Shown here: piece after piece, positions 1 through 8,316 of the stretch
Position numbering within the stretch: the stretch's first letter is position 1
How the letters are laid out: every line of letters starts with the position of its first letter
IMG/VR virus record: IMGVR_UViG_3300029610_000212
Reading direction: 5' to 3' (one strand)
Source of the DNA: a virus
Lineage: Duplodnaviria; Heunggongvirae; Uroviricota; Caudoviricetes
Length of the DNA stretch: 21,329 nucleotides
Translations under genes and position numbers: made by a program
Notes under the pieces: generated by a model
The model's database searches: none
What the model was told of the DNA's origin: nothing
The model's input: the letters and a program-made list of their open reading frames with translations, nothing else

Positions 1-549
1 ATCCAAAACAGTACCGACAGTGGCCGCCTCATCAATATCCGTCTCGAACGGCTCTCTTCACCGCTTGACGACGGGCAGGTTATCGCAATGGACAAGCCGG
101 ATGAGTTGCTACTCACTCCCGCCAGCTTGCTGCTACCCGCCCAAGCCAGCGAAGTGATCCGCTTCTTCTATAAGGGACCAGCAGATGAAAAAGAGCGCTA
201 CTACCGCATTGTCTGGTTTGATCAGGCCCTCAGTGATGCGCAGCGCGATAATGCCAACCGCAGCGCTGTGGCCACTGCTTCCGCCCGCATCGGCACCATT
301 CTGGTCGTCGCACCCCGCCAGGCAAACTACCACTTTCAGTACGCCAACGGCTCCCTGACAAATACAGGAAATGCGACGCTGCGGATCCTCGCCTACGGCC
401 CCTGCCTGAAAGCCGCCAATGGTAAGGAGTGTAAAGAGAATTACTACCTGATGCCGGGCAAGTCGCGTCGTTTTACCCGCGTGGACACGGCGGATAACAA
501 AGGACGGGTTGCACTTTGGCAGGGTGATAAGTTCATTCCCGTGAAATAG
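1..549 (+). CDS. ecpB: ECP/Mat pilus periplasmic chaperone EcpB, 5'-truncated at the window edge (C-terminal ~183 codons)
   Basis: Frame 1 is open from base 1 to TAA at 547-549 (the ORF track starts only at the internal ATG at 88). The sequence is paralogous to the downstream chaperone (shared ...FYYxGPxDxxERYYR... and ILVVxPRQ blocks). Its position directly 5' of usher, adhesin, second chaperone, ykgJ and yagU matches the remembered E. coli ecpRABCDE-ykgJ-yagU order. Confidence 0.75.
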
Positions 550-574
550 ATAGCTGTGCAGATGGATAACGACA

Positions 575-3102
575 ATGCCTTTACGACGGTTCTCCCCAGG
601 ACTGAAAGCCCAGTTTGCCTTCGGCATGGTCTTTTTGTTCGTTCAGCCCGATGCCAGCGCTGCTGACATAAGTGCGCAGCAAATAGGTGGGGTGATTATT
701 CCGCAGGCCTTCAGTCAGGCGCTTCAGGACGGCATGAGCGTCCCGCTCTATATTCATCTCGCCGGTAGCCAGGGTCGCCAGGACGATCAGCGAATCGGCA
801 GCGCTTTTATCTGGTTGGATGATGGACAGTTACGCATCCGGAAAATACAGCTGGAAGAGAGTGAAGATAACGCCAGTGTCAGCGAACAAACTCGACAGCA
901 ACTGATGACTCTGGCCAACGCCCCGTTCAATGAGGCCCTTACCATCCCCCTGACTGACAACGCGCAGTTGGATCTCAGCTTGCGCCAACTGCTGCTGCAG
1001 CTGGTGGTCAAGCGCGAAGCGCTGGGCACCGTACTACGCTCACGTAGCGAAGACATCGGGCAGTCCAGTGTTAACACCCTCAGCAGTAATCTGAGCTATA
1101 ACTTCGGCGTCTATAACAACCAGTTGCGTAACGGCGGGAGCAACACCTCCAGCTATCTGTCGCTGAATAACGTTACTGCGCTGCGCGAACATCACGTGGT
1201 GCTCGACGGCTCACTGTACGGGATTGGTAGCGGTCAACAGGACAGTGAATTATATAAAGCGATGTATGAACGCGATTTTGCTGGTCACCGATTTGCCGGT
1301 GGAATGCTCGACACCTGGAACTTGCAGTCCTTAGGGCCGATGACCGCCATTTCAGCAGGGAAGATTTACGGCCTTTCCTGGGGAAACCAGGCCAGCTCCA
1401 CCATCTTCGACAGCAGCCAATCGGCCACGCCAGTGATCGCCTNNNNNNNNNNGCGGCGGGCGAAGTACATCTCACCCGTGATGGGCGACTACTAAGCGTT
1501 CAGAACTTCACCATGGGCAATCATGAAGTGGATACCCGGGGTCTACCGTACGGTATTTACGATGTGGAAGTTGAGGTAATCGTTAACGGTCGCGTGATCA
1601 GCAAACGCACCCAGCGGGTCAATAAGCTGTTTAGCCGGGGACGTGGCGTCGGTGCACCGCTGGCGTGGCAGATATGGGGCGGTAGCTTTCATATGGATCG
1701 CTGGTCGGAAAACGGGAAAAAGACGCGACCAGCCAAAGAGAGTTGGCTGGCAGGTGCCTCGACCTCCGGCTCACTGAGTACGTTTAGCTGGGCGGCAACG
1801 GGATATGGATACGATAATCAGGCGGTGGGTGAAACCCGTCTGACGCTGCCGCTTGGGGGGGCGATCAACGTTAACCTGCAAAACATGCTGGCCAGTGACA
1901 GCTCATGGAGCAACATCGCCAGCATCAGCGCCACTCTACCTGGAGGCTTCAGTTCGCTGTGGGTTAACCAGGAAAAAACCCGCATTGGCAATCAATTGCG
2001 ACGTAGCGATGCCGACAACCGTGCAATCGGCGGCACACTCAACCTGAACTCACTGTGGTCGAAGCTGGGTACGTTCAGCATCAGCTACAATGATGACCGC
2101 CGCTACAACAGCCATTATTACACGGCAGATTACTATCAAAGTGTCTACAGCGGTACCTTTGGTTCGCTTGGCCTGCGGGCCGGTATTCAGCGCTATAACA
2201 ACGGCGACAGCAGCGCCAATACAGGGAAATATATCGCTCTCGATCTCTCGCTACCACTGGGCAACTGGTTTAGCGCAGGGATGACCCATCAAAACGGCTA
2301 CACCATGGCAAACCTGTCAGCACGCAAACAGTTTGATGAAGGAACCATTCGCACTGTTGGTGCCAATCTGTCACGAGCCATCTCCGGCGATACCGGTGAT
2401 GACAAAACCCTCAGCGGTGGGGCGTATGCACAGTTCGACGCTCGTTACGCCAGCGGAACGCTGAACGTCAATAGCGCGGCGGACGGCTACATCAATACTA
2501 ATTTGACCGCCAACGGCAGCGTCGGCTGGCAGGGTAAAAACATCGCTGCCAGCGGGCGGACCGATGGCAACGCTGGGGTGATATTCGACACTGGCCTGGA
2601 GAACGATGGTCAGATCAGCGCCAAAATCAACGGGCGGATTTTCCCGCTTAACGGCAAGCGTAACTATCTCCCGCTCTCTCCCTATGGAAGATATGAGGTG
2701 GAGTTGCAGAACAGCAAAAACTCACTCGACAGTTACGATATCGTCAGCGGTCGCAAAAGTCATCTGACTCTCTATCCAGGCAATGTCGCTGTCATTGAGC
2801 CAGAGGTGAAGCAGATGGTTACCGTCTCCGGTCGTATCCGTGCGGAAGACGGCACACTGCTGGCTAACGCACGGATTAACAACCATATCGGCCGAACCCG
2901 AACCGATGAAAACGGCGAGTTTGTCATGGACGTGGATAAGAAATACCCCACTATCGATTTTCGCTACAGTGGCAATAAAACCTGCGAAGTGGCACTGGAA
3001 CTCAACCAGGCGCGCGGTGCCGTCTGGGTCGGTGATGTGGTCTGCAGCGGCCTCTCATCGTGGGCGGCGGTGACGCAGACAGGAGAAGAGAATGAGAGTT
3101 AA
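575..3102 (+). CDS. ecpC: ECP/Mat pilus outer-membrane usher EcpC, interrupted by a 10-N run at 1443-1452 (apparent frameshift is a gap artefact)
   Basis: ORFs 575..1495 (signal-peptide-like N-terminus [29 protein letters not shown]) and 1513..3102 together make an usher-sized product of about 840 aa. The frame that continues into 1513..3102 is already open from 1453, immediately after the N-run ([23 protein letters not shown]...). Start is 25 bp after the ecpB stop; the stop overlaps the ecpD start. Confidence 0.85.
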
Positions 3103-4735
3103 CCTACTGATAGCGATGATAATCTTTGCGCTAATCTGGCCTGCAACCGCGCTCAGAGCGGCAGTGAGCAAAACAACCTGGGCGGATGCTCCGGCACGCG
3201 AGTTTGTGTTTGTCGAAAACAACTCAGACGACAACTTTTTCGTCACTCCTGGCGGGGCGCTGGATCCGCGCCTGACCGGTGCCAACCGCTGGACCGGTTT
3301 AAAATACAATGGTTCAGGAACCATCTATCAGCAAAGCCTCGGCTACATTGATAACGGTTACAACACCGGCCTTTATACCAACTGGAAGTTTGATATGTGG
3401 CTGGAAAATTCACCAGTTTCATCTCCTTTAACTGGCTTGCGCTGCATCAACTGGTACGCAGGGTGTAATATGACCACCAGTCTTATCCTGCCGCAAACCA
3501 CCGACGCCAGTGGATTTTATGGCGCGACGGTGACCAGCGGCGGCGCGAAATGGATGCACGGCATGTTGTCAGACGCGTTTTACCAGTATCTGCAACAAAT
3601 GCCCGTCGGCAGCAGCTTTACAATGACCATCAATGCCTGCCAGACCTCTGTGAACTATGACGCCAGCAGCGGCGCACGCTGTAAGGATCAGGCCTCCGGC
3701 AACTGGTATGTTCGCAACGTCACCCATACGAAAGCAGCAAATCTACGGTTGATAAATACCCACTCGCTGGCGGAAGTATTTATCAACAGCGACGGAGTAC
3801 CGACTCTGGGCGAAGGGAACGCCGACTGCCGGACGCAAACCATCGGCAGCCGTTCAGGATTAAGTTGTAAGATGGTTAACTATACCCTGCAAACAAACGG
3901 ACTCAGCAACACCTCAATCCATATATTCCCGGCGATCGCCAACTCGTCGTTAGCCTCGGCCGTCGGGGCGTACGATATGCAGTTCAGTCTGAATGGCAGT
4001 TCATGGAAACCGGTGAGCAATACTGCCTATTACTACACCTTCAACGAGATGAAGAGCGCAGACTCGATCTATGTTTTCTTCTCGAGCAACTTCTTTAAAC
4101 AGATGGTGAACCTCGGGATCAGCGATATCAACACCAAAGATCTATTCAACTTTCGCTTTCAGAACACCACATCACCGGAGTCTGGCTGGTATGAATTTTC
4201 TACCTCCAACACGCTGATTATCAAACCCCGTGATTTCAGCATCAGTATTATCTCCGATGAATATACTCAGACACCGTCGCGGGAGGGATATGTTGGCAGC
4301 GGCGAGTCGGCACTCGATTTCGGCTATATCGTAACCACCAGCGGTAAAACAGCTGCCGACGAAGTGCTGATCAAGGTGACCGGACCCGCGCAGGTGATTG
4401 GCGGGCGCTCCTATTGTGTCTTCAGCTCCGATGACGGTAAGGCGAAAGTACCGTTCCCGGCGACGCTTTCCTTTATTACCCGCAACGGAGCTACAAAAAC
4501 CTACGATGCCGGGTGCGATGATAGCTGGCGGGATATGACCGATGCGCTGTGGTTGACCACACCGTGGACTGATATCTCTGGCGAAGTGGGGCAGATGGAT
4601 AAGACCACAGTCAAATTTTCGATTCCAATGGATAACGCCATTTCTCTGCGTACGGTAGATGATAACGGCTGGTTTGGCGAAGTCAGCGCTTCAGGAGAGA
4701 TTCATGTTCAGGCGACGTGGCGTAACATTAACTAA
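3092..4735 (+). CDS. ecpD: ECP/Mat pilus tip adhesin EcpD (547 aa)
   Basis: 547-aa ORF with an N-terminal signal peptide ([23 protein letters not shown]). ATG overlaps the usher stop by 11 nt. The length matches what I remember for EcpD, and it sits between the usher and the second chaperone. Confidence 0.8.
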
Positions 4736-5414
4736 GGCCCTGCTGACAGTGGTCTGTATGCTGGCGGCACCTTTGACACAGGCGATTTCGGTCGGCAATC
4801 TGACTTTTTCACTGCCGTCCGAGACTGACTTTGTCAGCAAACGTGTCGTGAATAACAACAAAAGCGCGCGGATATACCGTATTGCCATCAGTGCTATTGA
4901 TAGCCCGGGCAGCAGTGAATTGCGCACCCGACCGGTGGATGGTGAACTACTTTTCGCCCCCCGCCAGCTGGCGTTGCAGGCTGGTGAGAGCGAGTATTTT
5001 AAATTTTACTATCATGGTCCACGGGATAACCGCGAGCGCTACTACCGGGTCTCATTTCGCGAGGTCCCCACTCGTAACCTGACAAAACGCAGCCCAACCG
5101 GCGGTGAGGTCAGCACGGAGCCGGTGGTGGTGATGGATACCATTCTGGTAGTACGACCACGTCAGGTTCAGTTTAAATGGTCCTTCGATCAGGTGACCGG
5201 AGCGGTAAGTAACACCGGCAACACGTGGTTTAAGCTACTGATTAAACCAGGATGTGATTCGACCGAAGAGGAAGGCGATGCCTGGTATCTACGTCCGGGA
5301 GACGTGGTTCATCAGCCTGAGTTACGTCAGCCGGGGAATCACTATCTGGTCTATAACGACAAATTCATTAAGATTAGCGATTCCTGTCCGGCTAAGCCCC
5401 CTTCGGCGGACTAA
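4704..5414 (+). CDS. ecpE: ECP/Mat pilus second periplasmic chaperone EcpE (236 aa from ATG 4704)
   Basis: Track ORF 4659..5414; I prefer the ATG at 4704 because it is preceded by AGGAGAGA (4693-4700) and gives 236 aa with a signal peptide ([27 protein letters not shown]). Chaperone-like motifs match the partial EcpB ([25 protein letters not shown]). Confidence 0.8.
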
Positions 5415-5726
5415 GACTTATCCATCAGACGAGGGAAGAATTCCACCTCAGAGACTCAAAAATCGTTTAAATGATGTGGAAGCGATCGTCAATGTCACCT
5501 GTAACGATGAGCTTTCTCATATGCACACCACAGTGTTCAGGAGACACGGAAAGGTACCAGGCGGCCTGCTAACGAGTGGTTTCTTCACTAATTAGGACGT
5601 AAAATCGGTAACGGCTGGAAATCATTCAATACTCACACTATCGAAAGTACATCAGCCAACCGCGATACGTCCTTGCATACGACGTACCGCTGTTCTCTTT
5701 ACGATTTATAGCTGTATTGGTGAATT

Positions 5727-6056
5727 ATGAGCAATCTGAATCCATGCATGACGTGTGGTGCCTGTTGTGCATTTTTCCGCGTCTCTTTTTACTGGGCCGA
5801 AGCCGACGATGCTGGCGGTACCATTCCCGCCAGGCTCACTGAACAAATATCCCCTTTTCACCGATGCATGAGCGGTACCAATCAGAAAAACCCCCGATGT
5901 ATTGCCCTTGCAGGAACACCGGGCAAAAATGCCTGCTGCACGATATATAAAAATCGATCGTCCACGTGCAGAGAATTCGCCATGTCTGGTGAGAACGGAG
6001 TCGTCAATGAGGCTTGCAATCGTGCAAGAGCTAAATACGGGCTGACACCGTTATAA
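5727..6056 (+). CDS. ykgJ: YkgJ-family cysteine-cluster protein (UPF0153; CxxCxxCC metal-binding motif)
   Basis: 109-aa ORF with N-terminal [11 protein letters not shown] and further Cys residues (CIALAG...CCTIY...C). GGTGA RBS precedes the ATG; an intrinsic terminator follows. Located between ecpE and yagU as in E. coli. Confidence 0.8.
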
Positions 6057-6079: not shown

Positions 6080-6112
6080 CCCCGCCAGCTATAATCGCGG
6101 GGCTTCGTTTTT
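6080..6112 (+). terminator. Rho-independent terminator of ykgJ
   Basis: Stem CCCCGC (6080-6085) pairs with GCGGGG (6097-6102) around an 11-nt loop, followed by CTTCGTTTTT; 24 nt after the ykgJ stop. Confidence 0.6.
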
Positions 6113-6262
6113 CAGGTATAACAAAACCCGAAACTTCTTCCATCTGCCAGCAACAATGCCTCTTCCTCTATAGCGTTCTCCGGATCTACAGCATCCTGAA
6201 GTAGCGCGATGTACTCACTGGCTATCTGCATCAGAAAGTTAAAAACAATGTTTTTAACCTAT

Positions 6263-6292
6263 AAAAATGGCGCTGTATTTGCGCCATTTTTA
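6263..6292 (-). terminator. Hairpin terminator downstream of yagU (A-tract/T-tract flanked, potentially bidirectional)
   Basis: ATGGCGC (6267-6273) pairs with GCGCCAT (6281-6287) around a 7-nt loop, flanked by AAAAA on the left and TTTT on the right, so either strand reads hairpin plus U-run. It lies about 15 nt beyond the yagU stop. Confidence 0.55.
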
Positions 6293-6304
6293 TCATTCAA
6301 TGCA

Positions 6305-6919
6305 TTATCTGTTTGAGCCTAAAGGGATCTCAGGGTCTGGCTCATGAGTAATTCTGTTTCGTAAATCTCTGCGAATAATTTCAATGGACCAGAACCAGAC
6401 TAAATGTCCAAAAATTTCAGAAACATTCTCATACCACGGGAGATCAAACAGAGGTGGCGTCAGTCCCATGAGAGGGAATGAAATCATATGAACAAAAAGT
6501 TGGGCTAAAGCACCTGCCAGTAAGCCCTGCCAGAGTTTAATTTTTGGAAATACTTCAGCGACCACACAATAACCGACAGCAAACACTATCGAAAAGATAA
6601 TGTGCGTAACACCAACCCAGTTAAAGACATGCCCGGCAAAGGTATAAACAGCCGCATTGGGATCTGTCAGCCCCAACCAGTCTCGAAGAAAAATATACGG
6701 AGGATTGAGAAAATTACGGGAGCAATCAATTTGCCCAGCAGCCCTGATTAATGATTCCGGGCCACACGCTGCATTAAACATATCCACCGGGCTACGTGGC
6801 GGCAATGGAACTTCAGCCCCCCACTTCACAAATGCGGAAACAACGCCAGCAATCAGCCCAATGAATGCAGCAAGACCATAACGTCTGCGGTTTGGTGGAG
6901 TTTGTTCAAATATATTCAT
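6305..6919 (-). CDS. yagU: Inner-membrane protein YagU (DUF1440 family)
   Basis: 204-aa ORF with several hydrophobic helices ([48 protein letters not shown]). Length and neighbourhood (convergent with ykgJ) match E. coli yagU. Confidence 0.8.
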
Positions 6920-7126
6920 ATCTACCCTGCTTGTACCATTATGTTATACACCTCTTCAGGAGTATTCATAAAACAAGACAAATGTAAAGAACTGTATTGT
7001 TTTGTATAACCACATGGTTACCTAATCGCCAATTAATATAAGCTCCATTATTTCTCCATATTTTTATGTTAGAAGTGACAAGGAGAAATGTAATGTTTCT
7101 CTCAGAGAATATAAATCATTCCTTTT

Positions 7127-7151
7127 GCCCACCTTAATGGTGGGCTTTTTT
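7127..7151 (+). terminator. Orphan + strand intrinsic terminator (no annotated + strand gene upstream)
   Basis: GCCCACC (7127-7133) pairs with GGTGGGC (7139-7145) around loop TTAAT, followed by TTTTTT (7146-7151). The minus strand has no U-run after the hairpin. Just upstream is AGGAG (7081-7085) and an ATG at 7093 opening a 14-codon ORF. Confidence 0.5.
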
Positions 7152-7307
7152 ATGCAAAACCTGAACGTCCTGTGGTATTCCTCTGGCATAATAATTTTCG
7201 CGATTAACCAACAACCAGACCAGCAAAGACGCCACCACAAGCACAGCAACATCCATCAGGCTTGCCACACCCCATGCGTGCGGCTCAAAGCCGCCATGGC
7301 ATATTAA

Positions 7308-7496
7308 TCCGCTTGCCATTTTCGAACAGCTGATTGGTTTAGTCCGGTGTTTCCCTGCTTGCACTTAAAAATGAGCGGATGGGAAACTCTCGAAATGGTT
7401 CGTCGATATGCTCACCTCGCACCTAATCACCTTACCGAACACGCACGGTAAATAGATTCGATCCTGAACCCATCGGTCCCAAATCTGTCCCAATAA
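7308..7496 (+). pseudogene. Tyrosine-recombinase (phage integrase) C-terminal remnant with an internal stop
   Basis: The frame reads ...[59 protein letters not shown]. The xGWExxEMVxRYAHL block is the conserved C-terminal box carrying the catalytic Tyr of lambdoid/P22-type integrases. Similarity continues past the in-frame TAA at 7449-7451; there is no N-terminal part and the frame is closed upstream at 7305. Confidence 0.55.
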
Positions 7497-7539
7497 AAAA
7501 TAAGGAAGGTATTAGTGATGTGTAACTTATTGATTTAAA

Positions 7540-7586
7540 TGGTGCCGATAAGAGGAGTCGAACCTCCGACCTTCGCATTACGAATC
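7540..7586 (-). tRNA. Partial tRNA-Thr(CGU) 3' fragment (thrW-type attachment core / pseudo-tRNA; not a functional gene)
   Basis: The reverse complement reads GATTCGTAATGCGAAGGTCGGAGGTTCGACTCCTCTTATCGGCACCA: anticodon loop with CGT, variable loop AGGTC, T-stem GGAGG/CCTCT, T-loop TTCGACT, acceptor 3' strand TATCGGC, discriminator A and CCA. The sequence 5' of it on the minus strand (7587-7620) cannot form a D-arm or acceptor 5' strand. Confidence 0.7.
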
Positions 7587-7834
7587 TGTAGCACCAATCA
7601 TAACTATCTGTTTTAGCAAGCATTAACCGCATTCACTAAGCTATAGTTGATGGCACAAACAGAAAGTTGATGCATGATGTTGTCATGTGTATGTCACAAA
7701 TACGGCACAACGATCTTCAAACATGTAGACACACATCCACAGAAGAGCACAAAGCCTTGCAAGCCAGTGCAAGCTTTGTGTGTCTATGTTTTGTCTCAAC
7801 AACCACTTCAATTCTCAATCTGTTTAACCTAGAT

Positions 7835-8230
7835 ATTATCTCCTACAGCCTGCCAGAAAGGCCGGTGATGGAGATGATTAATACGATGCTGCACGATGCA
7901 TTCTCAGTGCTCGGACCGGAGAATACACCGTTGCTGCACACGGATCAGGGCTGGCAATATCGAATGGCAGGCTATCAGGCAAAGTTAAAGGCCCATGGAA
8001 TGACACAAAGTACGTCGCGCAAGGGAAACTGTCTGGATAACGCAGTAATGGAGAACTTCTTCGGCACACTGAAATCGGAGTGTTTTTACCTGAACAGGTT
8101 CAGCGATCTGAATGAATTGAGGAAAGCGATAGAAGACTATATTCATTATTATAACAACGAGCGGATCAGCCTGAAATTAAAAGGCCTGAGTCCGGTAGAA
8201 TACCGAACCCAAGCCCTGAAAGCCGCTTAA
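7835..8230 (+). mobile_element. IS3-family transposase (OrfB) remnant, 5'-truncated (C-terminal ~130 aa only)
   Basis: The C-terminal two thirds of track ORF 7667..8230 carry IS3-family OrfB motifs (HTDQGWQY, SRKGNCLDNAVMENFFGTLKSE, YIHYYNNERI...LSPVEYR). The first ~56 codons of that ORF show no transposase similarity and there is no OrfA or upstream catalytic Asp, so the element is decayed. Confidence 0.7.
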
Positions 8231-8316
8231 AATTAACTGTCCAACTTTATAGGGTCAGTCCATAGACTGCAGGCTTTTAGATTACGTAATTTAAAAACAA
8301 TAGTTATAGAAACAAA

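Follow-up and report, generated by a model that had tools for sequence, protein, structure and literature searches.

The window, a stretch of 21,329 nucleotides of viral record IMGVR_UViG_3300029610_000212, is a piece of the Escherichia coli chromosome in reverse orientation compared with K-12. Its region 6920–8316 lies at thrW, the gene for tRNA-Thr(CGU). A 46-nt 3′ fragment of thrW at 7540–7585, with the boundary at 7585/7586, is very probably the attR of a temperate phage integrated in thrW, and it lies beside the dead remains of an earlier phage that had used the same tRNA gene. Two successive integrations at this site had been proposed in a preliminary description of the region, and three sets of data agree with that proposal, that is, the strains with no insert, the two phage lineages that meet at the junction and the far ends of related prophages. 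The features on which the argument depends are the following.

7081–7521 (441 bp): scar block, attributed to an older thrW phage, in place of yagP-paoDCBA of K-12; homology to K-12 ends at 7080 and restarts at 7522
7201–7328, minus strand: 3′ fragment of a small lambdoid gene (ev207 gp24-like), fused to the integrase stub; 83–84% identity to 46 lambdoid phages
7328–7525, plus strand: integrase pseudogene stub, the last ~66 of 387 codons with the tyrosine motif RRYAHL (tblastn with SfV and HK446 Int, alignment, DNA identity and annotation by the Prokaryotic Genome Annotation Pipeline, PGAP)
7526–7539 (14 nt): spacer from the integrase stop to the tRNA 3′ end, start of the int-side arm of the older att site; 14/14 identical in SfV, HK446 and EC12
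7540–7585, minus strand: thrW 3′ fragment, tRNA-Thr(CGU) positions 31–76, probable attR core; all 46 nt agree with thrW of E. coli DETEC-S792, which is intact
7586–7798: HK446-type attP arm attributed to the younger phage, on the side away from the integrase (equivalent of the P arm), at the extreme attR end of the prophage; 94.4% identity to HK446

The tRNA fragment and the two phage lineages

Read 5′ to 3′, the fragment begins with a single base of the anticodon stem and extends through the CGU anticodon loop to CCA, and its identity to thrW breaks off sharply at 7585/7586. ARAGORN called no tRNA gene in the whole window, so the 5′ half of thrW is truly missing beside the fragment. The preliminary description had noticed such a fragment without a 5′ half, and this part stands, although its placement (47 nt at 7541–7587) was off by 1–2 nt. 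The same 46-nt segment is the attP core of HK446 and SfV. The core boundary at tRNA position 31 is common to HK446, EC12, E2348/69 and two prophages nearly identical to that of the window (L012 and L013).

The arm at 7586–7798 has a counterpart in HK446 that directly adjoins the annotated attP of this free phage. It is found with 96% identity in four near-identical prophages (L012, L013, L273 and L274), and also in the CDT-I lambdoid prophage at thrW of EC12 and in the decayed element of E2348/69. In the relatives the order runs from a fiber-assembly gene to the arm and then to the core, and the arm thus belongs to the younger phage. The two sides of the core show opposite affinities. The stub at 7369–7525 is 90.5% identical to the SfV-type and 62% to the HK446-type sequence, whereas the arm is 94.4% identical to the HK446-type and 32% to the SfV-type. 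From this bimodal identity it follows that the junction is a hybrid attR of two phage lineages. The junction of scar, core and arm is present in the independent complete genomes E2348/69, EC12, CP057565, CP057243 and CP099349.

In the case of the integrase stub, tblastn aligned amino acids 336–379 of SfV Int with 7368–7499 (84% identity, E 3e-23), and the DNA of 7369–7585 is 92–93% identical to the int-attP region of SfII, SfV, SfI and SfIV. This is the expected homology to integrases of the P22/SfV family. A degraded integrase C-terminus had been noticed at 7308–7496, converging on a tRNA fragment of the opposite strand. The geometry was as claimed (int on the plus strand, tRNA on the minus strand), but the remnant starts at about 7328, and 7496 is only a premature stop produced by a 1-nt deletion. 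The ancestral integrase stop is at 7523–7525, which is 14 nt off the tRNA end; the 44 nt given earlier hold for the premature stop and not for the ancestral one. The 14-nt spacing between int and tRNA also occurs in two intact prophages (L113 and L160).

The stub is a pseudogene. There are at least two in-frame stops (7340–7342 and 7449–7451, TAA), and the alignment shows deletions of 2 nt near 7367 and of 1 nt near 7495. The pieces 7334–7369 and 7496–7525 (KNKEGISDV and stop) are in a different frame from 7368–7499. Of the complete R-K-H-R-H-Y domain of an open reading frame (ORF) of ~387 amino acids, only the tyrosine motif RRYAHL is left, and a Pfam search with the 42-amino-acid translated segment of the stub gave no match (PF00589 was not recovered). 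Where this stub occurs in other genomes, it carries the PGAP label ‘integrase; frameshifted; internal stop; missing N-terminus’.

The stub is also a mosaic. Its first 41 nt (7328–7368) are HK446-type (74–79% vs 47% to SfV), the rest (7369–7525) is SfV-type, and the 2-nt deletion is located at this switch point. The blastn match of three near-identical prophages (L013–L015) to the window starts at 7369, and in L013 the sequence further upstream is SfV-like, not HK446-like.

The scar block contains a second phage remnant. In ev207 the gp24-like small gene directly follows the tail and tail-fiber genes. The homology of 7201–7328 to this tail-adjacent lambdoid gene shows that the older element left two fused fragments. 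The strand of 7201–7328 is the one expected if a deletion internal to the prophage fused the small gene to int, and PGAP calls an ORF overlapping it a ‘hypothetical protein’. The earlier view that the older element was cut down to the 3′ end of its integrase is therefore right about the stub but incomplete.

The comparison with strains that carry no insert at thrW, proposed as a check in the preliminary description, gave a clear result. DETEC-S792 is 100% identical over 6900–7585 and continues with an intact thrW and proA. Six further genomes are 99.9–100% identical up to 7585 and have an annotated tRNA-Thr there. The stub is therefore an old fixed scar, which predates the right-hand element and has an independent origin. 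Of the 5426 complete E. coli genomes searched, 1121 have the 441-bp block 7081–7521 at a query coverage of at least 80%, Nissle 1917 and E2348/69 among them. The K-12 alignment shows yagP-paoDCBA in the place of this block, in line with the K-12 gene order given in the preliminary description.

The younger prophage and the alternative explanations

Relatives with a tail module 98–99.9% identical to that of the window are found in CP056936, CP057565, CP057243 and CP099349 and in IMG/VR contigs. In these relatives the fiber-assembly gene is followed by ~157 bp, the arm and the 46-nt core, and then by either plain flank or an SfV-type int stub. The tail-tube protein of the window is present in 323 blocks of the searched collection, and for this reason direct extension to the right gave other genomes only. 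The far end of the younger element was reached through IMG/VR contigs of near-identical prophages, which serve as a proxy from other genomes. Prophages whose tail module is 99.4–99.9% identical end there with an HK446-type Int (99.7–100%), 14 nt, an intact tRNA-Thr(CGU) and proA. For instance, contig 2558860288_000010 has a complete Int with 99.7% identity to that of HK446, followed by the same 14 nt, intact tRNA and proA.

Contig 643692022_000008 shows both ends, that is, Int and thrW at one and the arm, core and SfV-type stub at the other, an architecture equal to the one we infer for the window. Together with CP057565, CP057243 and CP099349, which are genomes outside the RefSeq complete E. 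coli set, it resembles the window in the 99% identical tail module and in the succession of fiber-assembly gene, HK446-type arm, core and SfV-type stub. These four differ from the window in that the segment with the IS3 remnant and the adhesin (see below) is absent, the stub is longer and SfV-like throughout, and the host flank is ykgR in place of yagU-ecp.

Two further contigs depart from this arrangement. In 2558860288_000010 (L274, 13318–13700) a P4-type integrase gene comes after the 46-nt thrW fragment of attR and points away from this fragment, which makes another tandem array at thrW with a different class of element. In 2724679539_000005 (L114, 12947–13000) the same prophage has the tRNA copy beside int cut after ~18 nt, with unrelated DNA beyond. 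This contig has no intact thrW and was set aside as an example of the far end, being a further rearrangement.

A single phage would explain the region if 7328–7798 were the unrecombined attP of the right-hand phage, which entered by another route and lost most of its own int, so that no older element existed. The stretch 7328–7796 is colinear with int, attP and flank of HK446 (83.6% over 475 columns), in the order of an uninterrupted attP. However, the opposite affinities of stub and arm argue against such an origin, the stub and core adjoin an intact thrW without arm or prophage in the insert-free strains, with the block in the 1121 genomes counted above, and the near-identical prophages have their complete HK446-type int at the opposite end. 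A single element is thus very improbable; the stretch 7328–7798 imitates an uninterrupted attP, colinear with HK446, because the older stub provides the int-side arm. Still a little less probable is an error of assembly, in which 7585/7586 would be a false join across the 46-nt repeat of attL and attR and an intact thrW would really be there. The assembly is a draft with runs of N, and any thrW lysogen has an exact 46-nt repeat by construction. On the contrary, the junction recurs in the finished genomes E2348/69, EC12, CP057565, CP057243 and CP099349, the repeat is shorter than the normal read length, and the join is the one expected of an attR.

The least probable of the alternatives is a deletion, mediated by IS3 or illegitimate, that took the 5′ half of thrW and placed phage DNA beside the remnant. 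A truncated IS3-family element is only 224 bp off and insertion sequences (ISs) cause adjacent deletions, yet the breakpoint falls exactly at tRNA position 31, which is the attP core boundary in HK446, EC12, E2348/69 and the near-identical prophages, and the sequence next to it is a conserved att arm of 213 bp and not that of an IS. To our knowledge, thrW is the sole gene for tRNA-Thr(CGU) in K-12, and a viable strain would be expected to keep an intact copy.

Several points weigh against two integrations at thrW or limit their reconstruction. The exact 49-nt pattern of the arm/IS3 junction had 0 matches in the species-representative genome collection, and neither for 6300–8400 nor for 7500–10500 does any complete E. 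coli genome reach a coverage of 80%. The far end of the element in this genome (int, intact thrW and proA) would lie outside the window, and the draft state of the assembly, with its two N runs, bears on the completeness of the younger prophage. The order of the deletions, and loss of yagP-pao here as opposed to its gain elsewhere, are reconstructions. The position of the crossover given below depends on the allele assumed for the incoming attP.

The T-stem of the tRNA gives a marker for this crossover. In DETEC-S792 the intact thrW (L001, 7241–7316) has the compensated pair G50-C64, and so does the fragment of the window. K-12, HK446 and all relatives seen have U50-A64, as do most phage attP copies, and the displaced fragment of E2348/69 (L002, about 9240–9285) shows the uncompensated intermediate G50/A64. 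If the incoming attP carried the common U50-A64 allele, retention of the resident G50-C64 places the strand exchange 5′ of position 50 of the tRNA, with the anticodon loop as the most likely site.

Comparison with known thrW elements and proposed history

PMC7545054 lists thrW among the tRNA genes of E. coli in which integration is most frequent, and a scar at this known hotspot is a kind of feature already known. In the GenBank records of HK446 and of the mEp phages, the attP is marked ‘similar to thrW and ptwF’. Phages of thrW with a P22-type att include SfV, SfII, SfI, SfIV and SfX, and the coliphages HK446, HK75, mEpX2 and mEp213. As in the window, the int end in the attP of the SfV/HK446 group is 14 nt from the 46-nt copy of the thrW 3′ end. 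This group also has cargo genes between attP and the tail-fiber genes, gtrABV in SfV and the YadA-like adhesin in the window. Unlike these phages, the window joins a dead 66-codon stub of one lineage to the arm of another.

The closest named phage is Citrobacter phage Chris1 (81%), with a lambdoid early region and a P2/Mu-type tail. The younger phage has a contractile tail of the P2/Mu type, whereas HK446 is classed in Hendrixvirinae.

The genome of E2348/69 (NC_011601, 269.4–274.0 kb) resembles the window in yagU, the hypothetical ORF, the SfV-type stub, the 46-nt fragment and the first 143 bp of the arm, with 98.2% identity over 6900–7728. Beyond these lie remnants of ISs and another partial integrase, which reads towards an intact thrW with proA next to it, so that a tandem scar of this kind is visible here in full. 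In contrast to the window, the younger element of E2348/69 is itself reduced to pieces of ISs and 516 bp of an integrase, a different IS3-family fragment of opposite orientation interrupts the arm at window position 7728, and both the tail module and the adhesin are absent.

K-12, with CP4-6 and ptwF, shares with the window a thrW 3′ fragment displaced to that end of the element which is nearer to yagU, and an older integrase stub after it. This stub (L003, 6160–6273) has 68 nt, is HK446-type (89.6% over 115 nt with the core; NGTNTAQEE/NVVYLN), is much shorter than that of the window and runs straight into the truncated yagP′-paoDCBA. The CP4-6 intF has its 5′ end towards ptwF, and both geometry and integrase type differ from the window. 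ptwF matches thrW over 49 nt, the fragment of the window over 46. The 68-nt HK446-type stub fused to yagP′ was found in at least 1895 genomes. Because of the K-12 stub beyond ptwF, the downstream flank of thrW is phage-derived in both alleles seen, each of which consists of a dead integrase stub and the int-side arm of an old attP.

In phages that target tRNA genes by a tyrosine recombinase, attP carries a 3′ segment of the tRNA. On integration, this phage copy completes the tRNA beside int, and the resident segment is displaced to the other end. Comparison with the phages and strains above suggests that an SfV/SfII-type phage entered thrW by site-specific recombination through its tyrosine recombinase. 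As its attP would have carried the last 46 nt of the tRNA, the working thrW would then consist of a host 5′ part and a phage 3′ part, with the int end 14 nt past it and reading towards the tRNA. Deletions would later have removed nearly all of this prophage, leaving ~66 int codons fused to the 3′ end of the small gene. yagP-pao is also absent in this lineage, and the 441-bp scar became fixed in about one-fifth of the sequenced E. coli.

A second phage, with lambdoid regulation, a contractile tail and an HK446-type integrase, would then have recombined with the scarred thrW; the junction is seen in the window, and the event is deduced from it. The incoming 46-nt copy would complete thrW beside proA, beyond the window, and the resident 46 nt with the old scar would have moved to the opposite prophage end (7540–7585), against the attP arm (7586–7798). 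The cargo position between the fiber genes and the att arm holds the YadA-like adhesin and the truncated IS3-family element. Integration in the tRNA gene would thus have happened at least twice here. The region 6920–8316 is expected to be non-functional, except possibly for the attR as an excision substrate of the younger prophage.

For annotation, the PGAP ‘integrase’ pseudogene and the small ‘hypothetical protein’ by yagU can be read as what is left of an old SfV-type prophage, the tRNA fragment as the attR core of the younger prophage, and 7586–7798 as an att arm and not anonymous intergenic DNA. Beyond the annotation of the thrW locus this has little importance. The scar alleles, that is, the SfV-type block vs yagP-pao with the HK446-type stub, are usable as lineage markers and explain why paoABCD is missing from this strain. 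The YadA-like adhesin sits where Shigella phages carry genes for O-antigen modification, and it may be modestly relevant to the phenotype of the strain.

A broader idea, which we consider unlikely, is that the sequence downstream of thrW has a phage origin in many or even most E. coli, that the last 46 nt of the working tRNA are phage-supplied and that the target of integration is itself an attL relic with arm-type sequence. If that were so, and if the relic alters the efficiency of integration or excision or is retained by selection, the scar would have a function at the hotspot and would not be debris. The G50-C64 and U50-A64 alleles, with G50/A64 of E2348/69 as the intermediate, would in that event record a turnover of tRNA alleles driven by phages.

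Cargo segment, tail module and host surroundings

To the right of the arm and to the left of the scar, the window contains the following features.

1–5414, plus strand: ecpB-ecpE, host genes
5727–6056: ykgJ, host gene
6099–6299, minus strand: full-length match to the Rfam family IS009 RNA, between ykgJ and yagU (204 bits; gathering score 117)
6305–6919, minus strand: yagU, DUF1440 inner-membrane protein, host core DNA flanking the scar (Pfam DUF1440, 6e-48; the matching E. coli genomes all have it as yagU)
7799–10454: variable cargo segment of 2.7 kb (IS3 remnant, adhesin and its upstream region), which replaces a 157-bp spacer of the relatives
7809–8278, plus strand: IS3-family remnant, the 3′ ~470 bp with the C-terminal third of the OrfB transposase; 93.4% identity to the IS3-family 3′ end of strain 2012C-4221
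8317–9609, minus strand: YadA-like trimeric autotransporter adhesin, 430 amino acids (Pfam YadA_head, 3e-20; YadA_stalk; YadA_anchor)
10526–21329, minus strand: contractile-tail module, running past the right edge of the window (Pfam families of the identical or nearly identical genes in prophages L010–L015; 98–99.9% identity to these loci)

The IS3 remnant and the phage genes that resume beyond the tRNA fragment had both been recognized in the preliminary description, the latter confirmed here by the identity of the tail module to prophages and by the Pfam families of their genes. The ORF fragment of the remnant matched rve_2 (2e-25), rve_3 (3e-13) and rve, the last at profile positions 37–102 only, which is the C-terminal part. 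It is not a complete IS3 element: ~470 bp aligned, compared with a 1362-bp coding sequence in the full-length relative, OrfA and the left end are absent, and nothing IS-like was found left of 7809.

The adhesin ORF exceeds the gathering scores of PF05658, PF05662 and PF03895, corresponding to head repeats, stalk and membrane anchor, and the gene is 90–93% identical to ‘YadA-like family protein’ genes of other E. coli. Several near-identical prophages lack the cargo segment. In two of them (L014 and L015) the fiber-assembly gene (window 10455 onward) is followed by 157 bp and then by the arm (window 7798 downward), and another (L011) shares 9700–11110 at 91%.

The tail module encodes tail-fiber assembly, tail fiber, gpI, gpJ, gpW, gpD, X, U, tape measure, tube, sheath and gpV. 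In E. coli SW071611 (L004, 17000–28226) a 98% identical tail module lies beside ssrA instead of thrW, and IS1 has truncated it. This prophage piece was set aside as evidence on thrW on account of its location at ssrA and the cut by IS1; its position shows that members of the phage family use at least two integration modules.

ecpC and the tail sheath are not taken as pseudogenes, although they were examined as such, since their ORFs seem split because of the runs of N at 1443–1452 (10 nt) and 19925–20006 (82 nt), which are masks or gaps. Within 6920–8316 Rfam gave no match apart from a sub-threshold Hrs1 at 7112–7152 (20 bits; gathering score 56), which was taken as a chance match to a terminator-like hairpin. 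The intergenic region between ecpE and ykgJ contains 87–89 nt (5597–5685) that match, inverted and with 86–90% identity, the spacer which separates the fiber-assembly gene from the att arm in prophages L012–L015 (about 18760–18890), and this sequence may be a small dispersed repeat.

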